From positions 1 to 37,785 of the IMG/VR virus record IMGVR_UViG_3300036802_000114: DNA of 37,785 nucleotides, one strand, 5' to 3'. A program made the position numbers and the translations under genes. The stretch is from a virus (Duplodnaviria > Caudoviricetes). The notes under the pieces were generated by a model. The model did no database searches. It was not told the origin of the DNA and was given only the letters and a program-made list of their open reading frames with translations. This document shows, piece by piece, positions 3,292-12,846 of this stretch; the stretch's first letter is position 1, and every line of letters begins with the position of its first letter.

Positions 3292-3627
3292 TCACCACCC
3301 TCCAAAGACTATTTGCGCCAGCTCCATTATGGCTAAAGCGTTCATGTCGTTTTGTTTCTGTACTTCTTCCAATTTTGCTTTTAATTGTTCCTTCTCTTCC
3401 TCAGCTGTCAAAAACTTTTCTAGGGCTGCCTTTTTATCGAGTGCCTTTATTTCATCTGTCAACGTGTCTGGTACCTTAACATCGTCATTTAGTAAAATAT
3501 GATTATCGTCGATAGATGAAAAAGAACCTCCATCGAAATAGAGGTCCTGTCCGTTTATTTTTGGATTTTCGATACCTTCATAGACGCTGGCTAACTCGCC
3601 ATTTTCATGATAGATTGCGATTTTCAT
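3292..3627 (-). CDS. Putative tail-fibre assembly/XkdW-like protein
   Basis: Follows the RBP; C-terminal coiled coil ending ALAIMELA. Confidence 0.6.
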   Translation of the reverse strand: MKIAIYHENGELASVYEGIENPKINGQDLYFDGGSFSSIDDNHILLNDDVKVPDTLTDEIKALDKKAALEKFLTAEEEKEQLKAKLEEVQKQNDMNALAIMELAQIVFGGW

Positions 3628-5993
3628 TATTTATACCTCACTACTAAAGTGGCGTTTGGCGCCATGTTCATATAATCCGTTGCCCCCGTAATATATGCCC
3701 CTAAACTAACGTCAATACTACCACTCGCAATATTTGTCTGAATTAAAGACGTGATATCAAACGACTTTGTCTCGCCTACTGCGATTGAAGTAGTTTGATA
3801 GTTGGCTGATATAGGAGGCGTACCATTTGGCCTGCTGGATCTGCTTGGATATTTATGTGTTCGTATATATGCTGTTCTTACGGCCGAAGACCCTCCTGCG
3901 TTACGAGTAATGGTCAAAGAAGCACTAACAATCGTTTTACTTCTGAGAGATGTTAAGTCAAAATACCATAATCCTGTCTGCTGTCCATAACCCCAATCAC
4001 CTTGAGAAACTCTATCGTTGTTGTATCCGCCAACACTTGACCAGCTATCGCCTCCTGCAGAAGTAAAGGTCACGGTTTGTTCGCTTGCTGGCGGTGGCGG
4101 CGGCGGCGCTGCTTCCCCGTTATTTATTCCTCCGCCCTCTGGGAACTCTGACCAAATATCATTTACCCATTTTGACCCGTCGTTCTTGTATGCCCCGATG
4201 ATTGATAATCCCCACCTTACGATAGAACCACTCCATCTGCTCCCTATTCCTTGTACAACACTTCCGTTATCAGCAAGGACGGCAATTGGGACACTTCCTG
4301 AGCAATTCGCTAAATATCCTTTACTTCTTAAAGCGTATAGTCCACGGTCTGATACACCATAAGCTTGGCACGTATCAATACTAAAATTCGGACAATTTTC
4401 CATCCAAAATGCGTGACTTGCTTTGTTATTACCGTACACTTTTACATCCTGCATATTCACAAAATCAGAATAATAACAATTAATCACAGATTGTCCACTA
4501 GTAGAGACATCTCCTTGTGCATCAAACGATTGGAATAAAAATCTTCCTCTTGAACATTTATTAATCGTAGTTTTACCAAATATTTTTGGCCTAGCACTTG
4601 TATTACCTACAATGAGTATATCCCCGTTGTGAAAACCAGTTACGGCAATACCACCGTAAATGTCATTTTTTAAATTTAGCTGTAGCCAAAAGCCATTTAA
4701 ATTTTTAGGCAATGAATTAATAAAGTTTTGCATATTTTTCTTGGCTGTTGCCCATGATAACCCATCGTTTGCATCATTTCCTGCCACGCTGTCAAAGTAA
4801 TAATTTATAAAACCGCCAGTCCAGACATTTTCGACATCACCGCGTATTTTGTTAGCACTTAAAGCAGGAAAATAGCCACCATCGACATCAATGCGACCTA
4901 CATCCTCTAACACTCCGCCGCCTCTGTCTGCGACAACCCTTAAAATCCCTTGGTTGCCTACTTGGCCTAATAAAAGGGAGACGCCTTCCATTGAGCCAGC
5001 AGTCATTTTACCTAAGTTTGCTGAGATGGCTGAAAGATCAGTCGCATTAAGTCGGTCAACATCGATCGACCTAGCGGCGATATTTCCACCCCAAATGACA
5101 GTAGTTCCCGCAGGTTTCCATGTGGACGCTTGAGTTTGCGTAGCATCCGCAACCTCCACCATAAAGGCATCCCAATAATATGTGCCTAAAGAGCTAATAT
5201 ATAGCATCGCTTTAGTAGCGCCTGCTGGAACAGTTACAATCGTTGCTAATCTTTGCCAACCTGTGTTACCTGAGACTGCTATAGTAGCCCCTAATACGTC
5301 CAATGCGGTATTATTAAATCTTAATCCTATTGCCTGATTATTACTTCCTGCTAAATCGCTCCTTACATAAGCACTTACAATTAACTTCTGTCCGGCAGTA
5401 ACAGGGATTGTAAAATCAGTCAGGCTCTTTGCTAAATAACCATTTCCGCCTATTGCTTGTAAAACCCTTCCGCCCGTAAGACCATTTGCATAGTCTAAAA
5501 TTTGGAATGTAGTCGCTGTTCCTTTTGTTACATAACCTGTACCGGTTGGTAATTGTGATAGTGTATCATATCCGTCTCTAACGATATTTGGATTCACACC
5601 AGTAGCTAAAAGGTCTGATGTTAAAGACCCTGCTTTCACTTGTCTTGCTGTTATGGCATCAGTTTGAATCTTTTCTGCCGAAACACTATTAGCTGCCAGA
5701 GCATCAGTTAAAATAGATTCAGGGACAATCAAGGAACCGTCCACGACAGTGGCTGTTGGCACCTTAACATGAGTCCCTTGTTTATTCAAAAATACTAATA
5801 AATCATCATCACCCAAAGTTGGAAATACGTTTGAACCATAAAAAGAAAGTGGATCTGAATATTTCCAATAAATGTAGACAAAGTTTGTATTCCCATCAGC
5901 AATTTTATATGTTTGTCCTTTATATGCGATGCTAACACCTGTCCATTTTATATACCCAGCTGACGGGGTATTATTTTTGACATCCATAGCCAT
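3627..5993 (-). CDS. Receptor-binding tail fibre/spike with a CBM-like domain and a pectin-lyase-like beta-helix
   Basis: N-terminal module shared with the upstream gene; 10-aa fibre repeats; CBM4/9-like segment (VTAGQKLIVSAYVR..WQRL..VPAGA); YFDSVAGNDANDGLS beta-helix start; poly-Pro linker; C-terminal beta domain. Confidence 0.75.
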   Translation of the reverse strand: MAMDVKNNTPSAGYIKWTGVSIAYKGQTYKIADGNTNFVYIYWKYSDPLSFYGSNVFPTLGDDDLLVFLNKQGTHVKVPTATVVDGSLIVPESILTDALAANSVSAEKIQTDAITARQVKAGSLTSDLLATGVNPNIVRDGYDTLSQLPTGTGYVTKGTATTFQILDYANGLTGGRVLQAIGGNGYLAKSLTDFTIPVTAGQKLIVSAYVRSDLAGSNNQAIGLRFNNTALDVLGATIAVSGNTGWQRLATIVTVPAGATKAMLYISSLGTYYWDAFMVEVADATQTQASTWKPAGTTVIWGGNIAARSIDVDRLNATDLSAISANLGKMTAGSMEGVSLLLGQVGNQGILRVVADRGGGVLEDVGRIDVDGGYFPALSANKIRGDVENVWTGGFINYYFDSVAGNDANDGLSWATAKKNMQNFINSLPKNLNGFWLQLNLKNDIYGGIAVTGFHNGDILIVGNTSARPKIFGKTTINKCSRGRFLFQSFDAQGDVSTSGQSVINCYYSDFVNMQDVKVYGNNKASHAFWMENCPNFSIDTCQAYGVSDRGLYALRSKGYLANCSGSVPIAVLADNGSVVQGIGSRWSGSIVRWGLSIIGAYKNDGSKWVNDIWSEFPEGGGINNGEAAPPPPPPASEQTVTFTSAGGDSWSSVGGYNNDRVSQGDWGYGQQTGLWYFDLTSLRSKTIVSASLTITRNAGGSSAVRTAYIRTHKYPSRSSRPNGTPPISANYQTTSIAVGETKSFDITSLIQTNIASGSIDVSLGAYITGATDYMNMAPNATLVVRYK

Positions 5994-6017
5994 TATTTTC
6001 TACCCCTCTCAAGTTGA

Positions 6018-6944
6018 TTAAAATAAAAAGTGTGTCGCTAAGTTTAACTTATCTTCTCCAACTGCCCCTGACCCTAAAGCGGCTCCATTTACAACACCTG
6101 TTCCAAATAAATTGGAGTTATTAATAGCACCTGTACCTAATTTCCCTGCGGTTACTGCCCCTGATCCTAGTTCATTCGAGGTAACAGCCCCCGCTTTTAA
6201 TGCATTTGTGTCTACAACATTTGCTGTAAAAAGGTTAGAGTTATTTACAGCTCCAGTTGCAATCTTTCCTGCTGTTACCGCCGCAGAACCTAACGCCGTG
6301 CTATCAACAACGCCAGACGTAAATAAGTTAGCATTATTTACTGCACCGGTTCCAATTTTACCGGCTGTGACTGCCCCTGCGGCCAATTGACCAGCTCCTA
6401 CTGCTAAATCACCAATTTTAGCAGCGGTAACTGCTTTACTTCCTAACTCATTCGACCCAACAGACCCGTCTAATAAAGCGCTACCAGGCGTCATTTTGCC
6501 GGGAGCCATCGTTAACGTAAAAGTACCACCTTCATTTACCCCAATTAAGATATCATCCTGGGTTAAGGTCGGTTTAGTATTGGACATTTGAAGCTTGGTT
6601 TTATCGGTTGCCGAGAACTGCCACCAGATATATTTAAGCGCCGAATTGCCATTTGCAATGGTGTAAGTTATACCTTTATAAACAATGTTTAAGTCAGTCC
6701 ACGCTACGGAACCAGCGATAGGAGAATTGTTTGTAAATACATAGCCATCAATCATGTGAGTAGCAATATTTAAATCTGATGTACTAATACGATGACCGCC
6801 TCTTTCAGCCTCTTTTAGCACGTTAATTCGATAGGTGACATCATGTAAGGCACTTGCTACCTCTTCGTGCATTTGATTTCTGCTTTCAGCAAATCCTTCT
6901 GAAATAACTTCATTTATAAATTTTTTCAGCCATTTTTTTATCAT
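6018..6944 (-). CDS. Tail fibre/adaptor protein with Gly/Ala-rich repeats (308 aa)
   Basis: AGGGGG RBS before ATG6944; AVTxxKIxxG-type repeats; three copies of AVTAGK(I/L)xTGA(V/I)NNxNLF. Confidence 0.75.
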   Translation of the reverse strand: MIKKWLKKFINEVISEGFAESRNQMHEEVASALHDVTYRINVLKEAERGGHRISTSDLNIATHMIDGYVFTNNSPIAGSVAWTDLNIVYKGITYTIANGNSALKYIWWQFSATDKTKLQMSNTKPTLTQDDILIGVNEGGTFTLTMAPGKMTPGSALLDGSVGSNELGSKAVTAAKIGDLAVGAGQLAAGAVTAGKIGTGAVNNANLFTSGVVDSTALGSAAVTAGKIATGAVNNSNLFTANVVDTNALKAGAVTSNELGSGAVTAGKLGTGAINNSNLFGTGVVNGAALGSGAVGEDKLNLATHFLF

Positions 6945-6958
6945 AAATAACGAACCCC

Positions 6959-8371
6959 CTAAAATAGCAAATGTGTAGCCCATTTCATTTTTTCTTCGTT
7001 GATTGCACCGGCTTCAATATTTTCGCTTTTAATAACTAAATTAGTAATTTTTTCGGTGGTAAAGTCAACTAAATCCTGTCTTACCGATACCGCCACCTGG
7101 TCAGTATGCTGTTTGGCTTTTTCTTCGACTTCGCTAGAAACAATATCAGCATGTTCTTTTGCGTTTTTTTCCGCTTCTACAGCGACAACCTCAGCAAATT
7201 CCTTAGCGTTATTTTCAGCCTGTTGAGCTTGCCTTTCTGCCTGTTCAATTGCTTGTATTAAAGCTGCCATTGTGGCTTTTTGAGACAAAATATTTTTAAG
7301 ACTAGTAATCTGTGCTTCTAAATCAGATTTCTTAAACTCGATAAAATTACCAAGCTTAAAGGATTGAATCATTTTAGTTGAGTGGGCTCTAATAACTTCC
7401 TGAATACGTGCCTCTAAGTAAAGGGGAGGCTTATACCCATCATCCTTAATTCTTACCGTTTGGCCAACACGAATTTTCTCATGAGACCGTCCAAAGATAT
7501 GTTCAAGACTAACCGCTTCGCATCCGTAACTAACAGCTGCATCGATGCGTTTTTTCAGTGCTGTTTCGGTCAGAGTTTTGAGACGATCTAAATTCATTTC
7601 TGTATCTTCTGATTCTGGCTCATACACTTCGATTAGGTGCTGGCCGTTACGCCCCCATCTCTGCAATGCTTCTTGATCTTCGACTAATACGGTTAGCCGT
7701 GTGCCATCTTCTTTTTGCGGACCGATTCCTAAAAGTGCCGTAACGATATGACTGCTATCCTCGATGCGCTCAATACCGATTAAATCTTTACCAAACACAA
7801 TCTCTTTGCCCTCAAAGCCGGCAATCTGCCTCCGCAAATCCACATAGCGACCAACAACTTTATTGCCATAAATCTCGATACGATAGCTGATTTCTAGCTC
7901 AAATGTAGATGCAATATTTTTTAATAGGGCGAGAGGATTAGTGTAGTCATCGATATTAATCGTTCGGATAAAAGTAAATTCAATATTACCAGGCTGCCAT
8001 TCAGTGCCCAATAATGCCGTACTAACCGCTGTGTATGATGTAGCACCTTGCAACGTTTGAGGCTCAATCACTTTAGCTTTTGCTAAATCTGTAAAACTAG
8101 CATTCGAACGCACGTCCTTTTCGCTACGTTTGTACTTTCTGGCATAAAATATAATGTACTCACGAAAAAAACCGTCCTCATCTTGGATGAGTAGGCGGTT
8201 TCGCTTTTTTAGGAGACTTGACTTATCCAGAGTTGCATTTGCGATAAAATCAAAGGTATTCTCATTATTTAGACTATCTTTTCTTGTATCGCCCCAGTAT
8301 TCAGCATTCTTATTATCAAGAGTACCGATTATTTCGTCTGTTTGGTGGTCTAAAATATGCACTAACGCCAT
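6959..8371 (-). CDS. Tal-like baseplate hub/tail spike (prophage endopeptidase-tail family)
   Basis: Follows Dit; motifs GKEIVFGKDLIGIER..IVTALLGIG and GQTVRIKD..LYLEARI; C-terminal coiled coil. Confidence 0.85.
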   Translation of the reverse strand: MALVHILDHQTDEIIGTLDNKNAEYWGDTRKDSLNNENTFDFIANATLDKSSLLKKRNRLLIQDEDGFFREYIIFYARKYKRSEKDVRSNASFTDLAKAKVIEPQTLQGATSYTAVSTALLGTEWQPGNIEFTFIRTINIDDYTNPLALLKNIASTFELEISYRIEIYGNKVVGRYVDLRRQIAGFEGKEIVFGKDLIGIERIEDSSHIVTALLGIGPQKEDGTRLTVLVEDQEALQRWGRNGQHLIEVYEPESEDTEMNLDRLKTLTETALKKRIDAAVSYGCEAVSLEHIFGRSHEKIRVGQTVRIKDDGYKPPLYLEARIQEVIRAHSTKMIQSFKLGNFIEFKKSDLEAQITSLKNILSQKATMAALIQAIEQAERQAQQAENNAKEFAEVVAVEAEKNAKEHADIVSSEVEEKAKQHTDQVAVSVRQDLVDFTTEKITNLVIKSENIEAGAINEEKMKWATHLLF

Positions 8372-9780
8372 TTATCCCGCCACCTCACTTCCACTTTTTC
8401 AATACAATCCGCAGGTTCAGCAACTATTGTATTTAGACCTGGTATCAAAGGGAAGTATTCTCCGATAAATGCTTTTTCCTTTGTGATGTCTTCGCCGTTT
8501 CTCCGTATGATATTAGTCTTTTGATCAAACTCAATAACGTCGCCAACCTTTGCTACATAAGGCACTTGATTAGCATTGACGTTATTTTGACGAAGCAGAT
8601 ATATATCATCAATCCATTGATCAACAACTGGAAAGTCAAATCTTTGAAGTAACTGAACTTGTATCTGTGCTACATCAGCGGTCACAAATTTATTTGAATC
8701 CACCCAATTGACTAAGTAAGGTGATTGAAAAACTCCATTGACCATCTTGTATATTGCGGCAGTCCACACATTGCCTATCCTCAACATCCGGAAAACACCC
8801 TGAAAGAAGGTATCATTAAAAATAGCCGGACCTGATTCTGGGATTATGTCAATTCCTGCCTGACCAAACCCAGCACGTAGTCTACTATAATAGGAATATA
8901 AATTTCCAAAGTGTTTTACCATCTGCACTTTTGCTACTACTCGATTTTGTGTATCTAGTAAGGACACCACAATGCCACCTGCTTGGTTTGCACCAGTAGC
9001 GATCATCCGAAAACCCACATCGAATCGAAAATCTTTAACAGTCGTGCCAAATGAGGTTTTCATGGAAGGGCCGTGCCAGCCTGCCCCCAACCCATAATTA
9101 TCTGAATAAAAGGATTTTCCCGATGTTTTTAGTATACCGGTAATTTCTGAATCTTCTTGCGTTTGAGCAGGTATGGTCCAGCCTGTCAAATTCGTATTTT
9201 TAAACACTTGCGTCTCTGGATCAACTGGGGTTTGTTCGACTTTAAAAGGCATTCCAATCATATTGAGTTTGTCTCCGTTTGAGACAGCGACAAATGTCGT
9301 ATCTTTTTTTAGAGTCACTTTTATGGTTGGTTCAGTTTCAGCGGTTCCATTCACTTTAAAAGATGATGCACCGTTAATTTTTATCATTTTTTCTGTCCCA
9401 TATTTATATGGGTCTGGACAAATAAATGTAATGGTTCCTTGTCCAAATTTTACTAATTCCTCTAAATCAAGTGATCCGTCCACAACTGCATAGTATATAC
9501 GATCTGGTTCATCATCAAAAATAAGTTCTTGAGGTTGGTCTGTGATTAGCCATGCGGCAAGGTCTTCTTTCAGTTTCTGAAGATTTGCCATACTATTAGC
9601 TTCGATAAAAATGTTTACATTCTCTGGTCTTGGCAGTACGTCTGTACTTTCCAGATATCCTCCTGGCATACCTGGAATCATTAGTATGTTTCTTTGAACT
9701 GGCGCCCAAGGAGGTCGTTTTCTGCCCCGAAGAATAGTTACGTAATCTTTTCGAATTCCTCTAAATGTCATCCCGGACAA
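8362..9780 (-). CDS. Distal tail protein (Dit) with an internal insertion ('evolved' Dit)
   Basis: LIFDDEPDRIYYA and ITFICPDPYKYG; C-terminal FPLIPGLNTI; 472 aa. Confidence 0.85.
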   Translation of the reverse strand: MSGMTFRGIRKDYVTILRGRKRPPWAPVQRNILMIPGMPGGYLESTDVLPRPENVNIFIEANSMANLQKLKEDLAAWLITDQPQELIFDDEPDRIYYAVVDGSLDLEELVKFGQGTITFICPDPYKYGTEKMIKINGASSFKVNGTAETEPTIKVTLKKDTTFVAVSNGDKLNMIGMPFKVEQTPVDPETQVFKNTNLTGWTIPAQTQEDSEITGILKTSGKSFYSDNYGLGAGWHGPSMKTSFGTTVKDFRFDVGFRMIATGANQAGGIVVSLLDTQNRVVAKVQMVKHFGNLYSYYSRLRAGFGQAGIDIIPESGPAIFNDTFFQGVFRMLRIGNVWTAAIYKMVNGVFQSPYLVNWVDSNKFVTADVAQIQVQLLQRFDFPVVDQWIDDIYLLRQNNVNANQVPYVAKVGDVIEFDQKTNIIRRNGEDITKEKAFIGEYFPLIPGLNTIVAEPADCIEKVEVRWRDKWR

Positions 9781-9785
9781 AGAAA

Positions 9786-12700
9786 CTACCTCCCTTCAAA
9801 CCTTGTTTTTCTATCTATGTTAAATTCTTGGAAACTAGTAATATCATCTACCATCCACTGCGCTAGTTGTCGTAGATCAGGTGTTACTACTTGGATGATA
9901 GCAGGTTGTTTGGCTTGTTGTGATTCCATTACCTTAGTGCCATTGCTTTGACTACCAAAACTACCAACGCCAATCATCGTTGGTGATAAACTCATTCCCA
10001 CACTCATATCAGTTGATAATCCTTTAACTGCATCGGTAACTAAACTCTTACTGTTTTCAATTCCTTTTGCCAACCCACTCATAAAATCAGGCATCCAGCT
10101 TTCATAGTCTACCAATGGACCTTCATCAGGAACGCTAAAATGTAAAAACTTACGTATATCCTGTGCTACTCCTTTAACAGCATCACCAACAGCATGTGCA
10201 GCATTCTTAATCCCTTTCACTATTCCGTTAATCATATCAGCCCCCCAGGTAAATGCTTCTCCTGGTAAGTCTGTTATAAATTTAATAGCAGAATTGAATC
10301 CTGATTTAATAACAGAACCTAAGGTAATTAAAATGGAGTTAGAACCATTTTTCAAACCAGTAAATATATTAATACCAAGATTATATAGAGTACCTGGAAG
10401 ATTTATAAAGAAATTTAGCAACCCATTCCAGATATTTATAGCTCCTTGTACGGTACTATTAAATATAGAAACAGCTGCATTTTTAAGACCGTTCCAAGCT
10501 GCTGTGGCACCGTTTATAATTCCATCCCATAATGCACTTATAAAATCTTTAAACCCATTCCAAATGGTTTTAGCTATATTTACAATTCCATTCCATTCCA
10601 TTAATAGAAATCCTGCAATTGCAGTGACCACACCAGTAAATACTAATTTAATCCCGTCCCATATTTGCGCAAATGCTGCCTTGAGACCATTAAATATTTT
10701 TTCAGCATCTGTTTTTAATTCTCCAAAGTTCCCAGTTACCAAATCGCATATTAAAAGTATAGGACCTAAAAAAATTAATTTAATCGCATTCCAAACTCCG
10801 GTAAAATATAACTTTACTCCATCGAAAATTATCGCCACTCCTGCTTTTAAACTATTAAATATATTTGTTATTCCTGAAATAAATGGGGTTAATATTGCCA
10901 TTACTCCAGAAACGATCCCATTCCACACCGAGGAAAAAAAATCTTTAATACCATTCCATATATTTTCTGTAGTTGTTTTTATCCCTGTCCATAAACCACT
11001 AAACCATGCTGGGATACCAGTAAAAAAACTAACCAATGAATTCCATGCGTTGGGAATAGTGACAGTGAAAAAATTAGCGAGTGCATCGATTGTAACTTTT
11101 GTTGCTGCTTTTATACCCTCCCATAATCCAATCCAAAAGTTTCTGAATCCCTCACAATGCGTCCACAAATACGCAAATCCAGCTACTAAAGCTAATACAG
11201 CTAAAATAGTAAGGCCAATAGGGCCCATCATAAACTCTATGGCTGCACCTAATCCAGCTATAACTGGTGTTGCCGCTGCTGCTCCACCGGTTGCTACTGC
11301 AATCGCCCCGCTAATTACAGTAAACGCACTAACGGCCGCCCCAACTACTGTCGCTATACTGCTTATCGCAAATGCTAATGGAGCGATCCCAGCTATTAAA
11401 GCCATTACTACTAATATGGTCTTTTTCGTCCCATCACTAAGCCCTGCAAATTTTTCGCCTAGTGCTTTAGCTTTTGTCGCTATATCAGATAATATAGGGG
11501 CGAGCGTCGCCATTATGGTATCTCCAAGCCCTGCACCAGCTATTTTTAACGCATTAAAGGCTATTTTGGCTTTATCTGTGCCTGATTCTATGCCTTTATA
11601 TGTGTTTTCGACTGCACCTTTGCTATTTTTCAAGGCTTCGACATAGTCCTGGACCTCAAACCTTCCACCCTGAATTGCGTCCGCGAGATCCGGGCCTGCT
11701 TTTTGTCCGAACACATCTATTGCCATTGTTGTCGCACTCGCTATATCCGGGCATTTCTTTATTGCATCAAGTGTTTTTTCAAATTCCTGTGTACTATCTT
11801 TACCATCTGCAGCCCAGCTACTTATAGCTTTCTTCATACCAGCGAACGCTGTTTCGGTGTTTACTCCGGCTTTTTCCCATCCAGCAACATCGCAATACTT
11901 GTATCTGTATCGATCCCAAGTGCCCTCATAGGTGCGCCGTACTTAGCAAGATTAGTTGTTAAACTGTCCATACCTATACCGCTCTTTTGCGCTGCGACCA
12001 TTAATTTATCAAGTACAGTTTTATATTCGTCTGATTTAATGCCGGCATCACCCATCGCTCTACTAACTAATTGGATAGCTGAGTTGACATCCATATTATT
12101 AATTGTTGCGAATGATAAAAACGCATCGCCTGCATTTTTTAATTTATCACCAGTAAAACCAAGTCGTGTATTAATTTCACCGATTGCCGCGCCGACATCT
12201 TCCATGCTATCAGGGACCGAGCTTCCCAGATCTTTATACACCTTTTCTAGGTCTTTTGCTGTTTTACCTGTTGCTCCAGTTTTTTTAATTACTGTATCCA
12301 TACCCTTGTCTACTTCGGTAAATGCCGCAATTGCACCTGTAGCCACCCCCCCGATTGCAAGTGTTACTGGCATCATTGCTTTACCGACTTTGGCAGCGCC
12401 TTTGGATATTCCATCAGCGGTTTCGGATATTCTGTTTAAGGTTGAGTTACTTTCCGCTGCAGCTATTTCTAGCCTTCTGAGTTCCGCCTCTGTATTTACG
12501 ACTTCTCTTTGTAATGCGCGATATTGTTCCTCGCTAATTTTACCCTCTGCAAACTGTGCTTGCGCCTGTTCTTCAGCGGTTTTTAATGCTCCAAGTTTTT
12601 CTTTTGTGTTCGTCACGCTTTGTGCTAATAGCGTCTGCCTTTGAGCGAGTAGGTCTGTATTTTTAGGATCTAATTTTAACGCTTTTTCTACTTCTTTTAA

Positions 12701-12808
12701 TTCACTTTTTAAGTCTCTACTTGTTTTGTTGACACCTTTTAAGGCTTTATCAAGTGGGCCAGTTTCTCCGCCAATTTCAACAGTTATCCCTTTTATATTG
12801 TTTGCGAT
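9786..12808 (-). pseudogene. Tape measure protein gene, frameshifted at ~11886 and starting with ATC
   Basis: Frame open from ATC12808 ((I)ANNIKGITVEIGG..LDKAL, a typical TMP N-terminus). Restoring one T at 11886-11887 gives IAMFAGWEKAGVNTETAFAGMKKA, continuous with the 683-aa ORF bearing W/F-periodic repeats. Confidence 0.85.
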
Positions 12809-12846
12809 TGTTCACACCTCGCTTTTTTACAAATAAAAAACACCTA

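Follow-up and report, generated by a model that had tools for sequence, protein, structure and literature searches.

The 37,785-base phage record analysed here over its whole length (IMGVR_UViG_3300036802_000114, CheckV completeness 98%; hereafter the window) encodes three consecutive tail proteins: a Tal-type tail tip protein, a 308-aa spacer fibre protein and a 788-aa tip protein, the likely receptor-binding protein (RBP). We propose that a single tail-fibre joint is made up of two halves, an H-x-x-F end peptide (the plug) and an ~80-residue domain (the socket domain, D), which are encoded by separate genes here and occur fused in some other phages. This proposal is well supported, because fold-model docking, locus linkage and in-register fusions speak for it, and the existence of a plug-and-socket joint is regarded as highly probable. 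That the three proteins form one linear Tal–spacer–tip fibre is the arrangement we favour, at a probability of roughly 55%. The features of the module are as follows.

6959..8371, minus strand: Tal-type tail tip protein, the initiator, 470 aa (Pfam Prophage_tail, E 2e-22; TIGR01665)
6962..6991, minus strand: initiator plug KMKWATHLLF, the free C-terminus of Tal (from the sequence; a plug lies upstream of the spacer in 36/37 loci)
6018..6944, minus strand: spacer fibre protein, 308 aa, ATG at 6944, composed of helix, cis plug, socket D, ~10-aa GAV repeats and free plug (from the sequence)
6801..6941, minus strand: N-terminal helix of the spacer, residues 2–48, with conserved L-x-D-x-x-Y-R (helix 2–48 in the AlphaFold2 [AF2] model)
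6744..6776, minus strand: cis plug DLNIATHMIDG, spacer residues 57–67, joined to its own socket (from the sequence; register as in covalent plug–D junctions)
6501..6743, minus strand: spacer socket domain D, residues 68–148, a predicted beta-sandwich of shoulder-like fold (D profile, structure model and fold matches)
6051..6467, minus strand: GAV-type ~10-residue fibre repeats of the spacer, variable in number (repeat alignment; phrog_892 tail fibre)
6021..6050, minus strand: free C-terminal plug of the spacer, KLNLATHFLF (predicted to dock on RBP residues 20–28)
3627..5993, minus strand: tip protein (likely RBP), 788 aa, with a variable C-terminal part (N-terminus phrog_11032 tail protein; relatives differ behind D)
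5742..5987, minus strand: open socket domain D of the tip protein, residues 3–84 (D profile, pairwise comparison and docking model)

Plug and socket copies in the window

Tal ends in ...EEKMKWATHLLF and the spacer in ...EDKLNLATHFLF, each followed by a stop, and both are H-x-x-F endings. A six-frame scan of the whole window found ATH.[LIM][FD] exactly three times, at 6979, 6764 and 6038, and the D profile detected exactly two copies of the ~80-aa domain in the 37,785-base record. Spacer D and RBP D are identical at 33 of 70 positions (47%; E 5e-21 for the pair). The sequence, the scan and the profile thus bear out the initial annotation of this DNA, which had noticed the shared ends of Tal and the 308-aa protein and a domain common to spacer and RBP. 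As a chance rate, the looser ending H-x-x-hydrophobic-stop was seen in 3 of 150 other window frames of at least 60 aa. The free-plug histidine (H41) was invariant in 35 of 35 aligned ends, the rows having been selected for carrying the motif, and L33, D35 and R39 of the spacer helix were invariant in all 21 sequences. A weak DNRLRE match covers RBP residues 663–759 (E 0.0099).

The internal copy in the spacer ends in D-G and runs directly into spacer D. It is not a stray match, because it adjoins spacer D with the same register that a free C-terminal peptide has relative to the D of the next gene. Comparison of the covalent junction (H-M-I-D-G-Y-V-F-T-N-N) with the split junction (H-F-L-F-stop, then M-x-x-x-N-N in most tip proteins) suggested that the gene split takes the place of the turn glycine. 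A covalent copy of the peptide precedes the socket in 38 of 39 spacers. The distribution first proposed, with the peptide alone on Tal and the domain alone on the RBP, was retained, but the middle protein is not an open socket plus a peptide.

Predicted docking of the spacer plug on the RBP socket

Three chains of RBP residues 1–118 were co-folded with three copies of the last 44 spacer residues, alongside three controls. The spacer plug on RBP D, trimer on trimer, gave an ipSAE (interaction prediction score from aligned errors) of 0.80 (runs 0.80, 0.81 and 0.78) compared with 0.00 for the controls, a result to be read with the caveat that halves of a split unit tend to pass. Among solved complexes, 116 of 157 pass the ipSAE mark, compared with 2 of 215 mismatched pairs; the mark is a rough guide here, where our own alignments and trimers were used. 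The runs had at least 92% of their contacts in common, with a partner pLDDT (predicted local distance difference test) of at least 87 and an RBP D trimer pLDDT of 87–88; no complex of similar sequence was found in the PDB.

In the model, plug residues 40–44 lie antiparallel to the RBP strand V20–Y24 (contacts 20–43, 22–42 and 24–40), mostly with one plug per subunit, the plug histidine packs against Y24, W43 and L65 of the RBP, and RBP residues 2–3 touch the plug, as a fusion would require. The model supports the predicted binding of the spacer plug to RBP D. It also agrees with the initial annotation on two counts, namely that the C-terminal peptide would dock on the domain and that the joint is reminiscent of donor-strand pili, since the modelled peptide runs along a strand of D. 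A metal clasp of six histidines was set aside, as the second histidine (RBP H75) is unconserved.

Linkage of plug and socket across loci

The linkage was evaluated at 78 loci with D (the window, L010, L018, L022 and 74 of L025–L099; 58 after reduction at 90% identity), which were gathered by D or helix patterns, independent of the plug. L001–L009 and the other loci of L011–L024 were excluded as duplicates or repeat-only matches. The spacer (39 loci) was defined by its end plug, so the histidine in 39 of 39 spacer ends is circular. The gene before the spacer, in view at 37 loci, ends in H-x-x-[FYC] at 36 of them and in Y-R-I-Y at one. For background, the looser ending H-x-x-hydrophobic-stop was found in 0 of 455 unrelated frames of at least 150 aa from related loci, many of these frames being spurious. 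A script called 48 genes open-socket, and 43 were left after removal of five with an internal D. Among these, 33 stand directly after a plug and 8 have one gene between (41 of 43); the plug before another (L095) has one extra residue. When D lies deep within a long protein, the preceding gene is plug-less in 9 of 10 loci, and the tenth is an ambiguous, overlapping frame ending in H-R-G-L. The co-occurrence of peptide and domain that had been expected from the window alone was thus observed in 36/37 spacer loci and 41/43 open-socket genes, and the tip appears swappable as initially suggested, in that relatives share D and differ behind it.

Two cases weigh against this linkage. The last of the 43 open sockets, in L050, lacks a plug upstream. 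In phiCD211, the Tal ahead of D has a plug-like stretch, LNSKRHLFI, that sits 21 residues before its end. As this stretch is not terminal, a free carboxylate may not be essential.

Plug-bearing initiators comprise Tal, lambda gpJ-type proteins (L051, L098) and short proteins in podovirus-like operons (L029; L107, beside a head-closure Hc3 match). High-GC loci such as L001/L002 look like actinobacterial phages. The full triad is present in TVCOM_ph1 of Terrisporobacter, which PMC11253131 reports as an active prophage region.

The contiguity of plug and D in fused relatives would also suit a duplication relic of a split gene, or proteins joined by readthrough or frameshift. Nevertheless, the spacer–RBP gap is in frame but holds two further stops, another gene is inserted between plug and socket genes in 8 of 43 loci, and the plug is retained across very different tails. 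We give this explanation almost no credence, and a readthrough or frameshift fusion of spacer and RBP was rejected on the extra stops and the inserted genes.

A gene of ~200–230 aa lies between the spacer and tip genes at five loci (L033 8758–9441, L037 8956–9630, L038 8952–9635, L057 8990–9670 and L081 4097–4684). That of L033 has a weak glycosyltransferase-2 match (E 0.0075; phrog_1574), and its product may glycosylate the fibre. Small acidic low-complexity open reading frames (ORFs) in the same position (L036 9300–9638, L045 4573–4914, L094 409–792 and L042 9046–9198) are possible assembly chaperones. In addition, the proteins P0112, P0120 and P0121 are identical over their first ~165 aa (helix, cis plug and tip-type D) and continue with a free plug or two different terminal domains, which could reflect either tip exchange or spacer–tip fusion among close relatives. 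Scans for further cis-plugged tip proteins yielded no new lineage.

Distribution and fold of domain D

A search with spacer residues 45–160, which exclude the C-terminus, returned 18 relatives, and 18 of 18 end in H-x-x-F. RBP residues 1–100 retrieved 42 proteins of 469–1234 aa with differing domains behind D. This domain is N-terminal in 35 of them, follows a fused initiator-type plug in five (P0054-58) and comes after an ~380-aa extension in two. Furthermore, a 59-sequence D profile gave 1,649 matches (E ≤ 0.001) among 1.84 billion representatives of 50%-identity clusters. The best 150 of the 1,649 comprised 64 proteins with N-terminal D, 23 spacers, 39 with several internal copies and 24 with one internal copy; among these 150, internal copies are often preceded by a repeat and KL-x-x-x-x-H-phi-phi-x-G, and the histidine is present in 12 of 79 junctions of multi-D proteins. 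Single proteins with 2–4 plug–D units exist, and covalent plug–D fusions in register were found in P0054–P0058, P0174 and L107. Because covalent and split forms both occur in register, plug and D are considered one structural unit.

D had no sequence match in Pfam, NCBIfam or the PDB, and 59 copies of D gave Pfam matches at chance level only. Spacer and RBP had no Pfam match, the spacer had no NCBIfam match, PDB sequence searches returned nothing significant, and the ESM Atlas returned unnamed clusters only (0.86–0.90). Modelled alone, D is a confident beta-sandwich (pLDDT 92). Its best fold match was 8kec, the shoulder of the A-1(L) long tail fibre gp34 (Z 6.1, root-mean-square deviation [rmsd] 2.9, 77 aligned), and other matches included 2wzp, the lactococcal p2 RBP (Z 4.8, rmsd 3.0, 79 aligned), 2xc8, SPP1 gp22 (Z 4.8), TssK (Z 3.8), the HFTV1 fibre and Mtd. 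Phage RBP/fibre chains or type VI secretion TssK/IglD chains made up 12 of the 14 fold matches, every Z being below 8 and thus middling, and Foldseek with D found no match at E ≤ 0.001. This modelling suggested that D likely shares the p2-type RBP shoulder fold. The AF2 model of the whole spacer was poor (mean pLDDT 62), and a fold search with it returned mostly generic helices.

At L097 (126–1499), D seems to be interrupted between its last strands by an inserted stretch of ~230 aa, which we take to be LamG-like. The tip proteins at L029 8597–12904, L032 8742–10223 and L092 4885–7248 carry ~380 aa ahead of D, without a cis plug, indicating that the socket tolerates a whole N-terminal domain. 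Matches in Rhizobium phage L338C were weak (E 7e-5) and partial and were set aside.

Arrangement of the three proteins

In the linear fibre, the three end peptides of each trimer would add a beta-strand to the D of the next trimer. The cis copy of the spacer would fill its own socket as a weaker placeholder, which the Tal plug would displace by strand exchange, giving Tal, spacer and tip trimers at about 1:1:1; the repeat number would set fibre reach, and swapping everything behind D would change the tip. Linear extension needs strand exchange, since the spacer socket is already cis-plugged. With the cis copy mapping to the site of a free plug, the usual locus contains two free plugs against one socket that is open and one that is self-filled. 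The cis plugs end in D, T or E (38/38) and have the histidine in 26/38, and the initiator plugs end in F, Y or C and have it in 36/37.

The two free plugs per open socket would also suit a branched arrangement. Here the spacer socket would stay cis-filled, one tip trimer would be attached to Tal and another to the spacer, and the spacer itself would bind laterally by means of its N-terminal helix, for instance in the groove of the tip D trimer or on the Tal stalk. Such branching would also accommodate the initiator-type W plugs fused straight to tip-type D (P0054-58, P0174), the dyads without a spacer (L041, L051), the strong conservation of the spacer helix and the helical stem of A-1(L), which runs in the groove of a shoulder trimer (PMC10966104). 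However, L030/L031 have two free plugs and only two D copies, both cis-plugged, and thus keep both plugs without any open socket; 0 of 37 spacer loci lost the initiator plug (one H-to-Y variant); and L107, where the initiator is fused to the tip with one D, has no spacer within the contig (record 36% complete). At L091, a free plug stands ahead of a cis-plugged tip protein, which together with L030/L031 indicated that a cis plug is no absolute block. Moreover, the initiators are unrelated while the spacer helix is conserved, so the helix is unlikely to anchor on the baseplate. We consider the branched arrangement possible but rather unlikely.

The initial annotation had read the proteins as initiator, extender and cap, the middle protein being a plug-in spacer or a unit that could polymerise head to tail. 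In the polymeric version, several spacers (n > 1) would join between Tal and tip, like gp81 in the A-1(L) neck fibre. In its favour, socket and free plug are both present on the spacer, cis plugs seem open to displacement (L030, L091), single proteins with 2–4 plug–D units exist, and a gp82:gp81:gp80 ratio of about 1:14:1 provides a precedent (PMC10966104). Nevertheless, a spacer's cis plug is similar to its free plug and, being tethered, should be a good competitor. On a tree, the sockets of spacers and tips separate by role, with 3 label changes compared with 38.7 when shuffled (0/200; 82 columns, weakly resolved with many forks open), W at −7 occurs in 17 of 37 initiator plugs and 0 of 39 spacer plugs, and length variation is already supplied by repeat number (126–409 aa from D to the spacer end). 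A fixed chain is favoured over a polymer because the sockets group by role, the initiator and spacer plugs differ and the repeat number varies length. The docking of peptide and domain and the swappable tip were upheld from the earlier reading, whereas head-to-tail polymerisation is improbable.

The dyads and fusions that function without a spacer, and the frequent D-G at the cis junction (23/38), would also be compatible with a spacer that is a non-virion holder or chaperone, keeping the tip socket occupied until handover to Tal, or whose N-terminal 67 residues are a cleaved pro-piece. Both versions are very unlikely: the spacer is made of fibre repeats of variable length, T-G replaces D-G in 14/38, and no cleavage motif was identified.

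Several points count against the linear Tal–spacer–tip fibre itself. The docking model covers the spacer–RBP pair, and displacement of the cis plug by the Tal plug is what we infer beyond it, from a single lineage with incomplete records (L030/L031) and a contig of 1.6 kb. Were a free plug able to displace a cis plug, the spacer's own plug might do so too, allowing polymers. With the histidine present in only 12 of 79 multi-D covalent junctions, covalent linkage rather than designed weakness may explain the degenerate cis plug. In addition, direct fusions of initiator plugs to tip-type D occur, and residues 49–63 of the spacer are modelled unreliably by AF2 (pLDDT < 50).

More tentatively, the joint could be a portable, self-capping donor-strand-exchange coupling, in which trimers on tails of the Tal, gpJ and podovirus types are connected by a C-terminal strand of ~10 residues and a socket of 80, and a tethered decoy strand in the spacer socket sets the assembly order without a chaperone. 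If this is true, a spacer stripped of its decoy would polymerise into fibres of any length.

Genome context

The module belongs to a siphophage morphogenesis operon on the minus strand with terminase, portal, Clp protease, capsid, tape measure, Dit, Tal, 308-aa spacer, 788-aa tip, holin and GH25-LysM lysin.

8362..9780, minus strand: Dit, distal tail protein, operon context (Pfam Sipho_tail, SPP1_Dit; phrog_202)

The host is likely one of the Bacillaceae, because Fictibacillus, Saccharococcus and Peribacillus are the named sources of close relatives of the spacer and tip proteins. The tape measure (9786–12811, minus strand) consists of two overlapping frames split near 11,870 (316 + 718 aa, stop to stop), either through a sequence error or a genuine frameshift. 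A 111-aa gene (3292–3627, minus strand) overlaps the RBP stop by one base, has no significant family match and is a possible tip chaperone. Opposite the lysin, at 920–1450 on the plus strand, a moron-like 176-aa ORF has a signal-peptide-like N-terminus and matches phrog_24885 (no assigned function).

Discussion

The connector is real, widespread and unannotated, and modular fibre joints as a kind are already known. No description of this connector was found in the literature searched, in which subscription journals were thinly covered. The initial annotation's statement that no description of the module was known therefore holds for the connector but not for the initiator-extender-cap logic, which has been published for the neck fibre of cyanophage A-1(L), gp82-gp81(x~14)-gp80 (PMC10966104). 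In both cases three adjacent genes encode the fibre; trimers are joined end to end as initiator, extender and cap in A-1(L) and would be so here, with this gene order found in the window and at the 37 loci where the upstream gene is in view. The A-1(L) joint is made by N-terminal beta-hairpins with which the distal trimer reaches back, and the A-1(L) extender is a globular polymerising bead (PMC10966104). In the joint described here the conserved element is C-terminal on the proximal subunit and forms the modelled interface, the spacer is built of fibre repeats and its socket would be filled by its own cis plug, and the fibre is on the tail tip.

The T4 long tail fibre gp34-gp35-gp36-gp37 is, as proposed for the window fibre, a linear fibre of separately encoded trimers, in which trimeric gp36 binds the N-terminal region of gp37 (PMC3004832). 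The window fibre differs in having no monomeric knee protein and would use the same joint type twice. The D profile had no PDB sequence match and no Pfam match at cut-off, and T4 chains were absent from the 14 D fold matches, gp36/gp37 not having been directly compared. The shoulders of p2 RBP, SPP1 gp22, A-1(L) gp34 and TssK, which likely share the fold of D, are N-terminal in a trimeric RBP and used for anchoring; D is N-terminal in 64 of the best 150 matches. In p2, the first shoulder strand is supplied by the neighbouring subunit (PMC3893620). The p2 shoulder is gripped sideways by the Dit 'hand' and that of A-1(L) by a wedge; in contrast, D is smaller (~80 aa), can also be repeated as internal knobs, and is predicted to accept the C-terminal strand of a different fibre trimer.

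In the anchor-branched RBPs K1-5 gp37, G7C gp66/gp63.1 and KP32 gp37/gp38, a short conserved peptide and a docking domain similarly permit RBP exchange. There, the peptide is on the N-terminus of the distal RBP, a T4gp10-like domain is proximal, and the outcome is branching, not extension (PMC6872550), whereas the free window peptide is C-terminal on proximal proteins. No T4gp10-like domain was among the 14 D fold matches, which does not exclude one. In chaperone-usher pili, a strand of one subunit completes another and a placeholder strand is exchanged, with N-terminal donors, Ig folds, monomers and a separate chaperone. Strand completion would be common to both systems, and the joint described here would differ in its C-terminal donors, trimers and what would be a tethered placeholder.

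The coupling of RBP to tail limits host-range evolution and phage engineering. Known couplings are mostly confined to one phage group, whereas this joint appears with tails of the Tal, lambda gpJ and podovirus-like types and spans 1,649 protein clusters, without a curated family. It provides a reading rule for unannotated tail operons, in which a gene that ends in H-x-x-F/Y should precede one that begins with D. Plug and D are also candidates for a minimal tag-and-catcher pair with which to join trimers. Should the cis plug be a placeholder that can be displaced, the spacer would represent pilus-like strand exchange within one phage protein.

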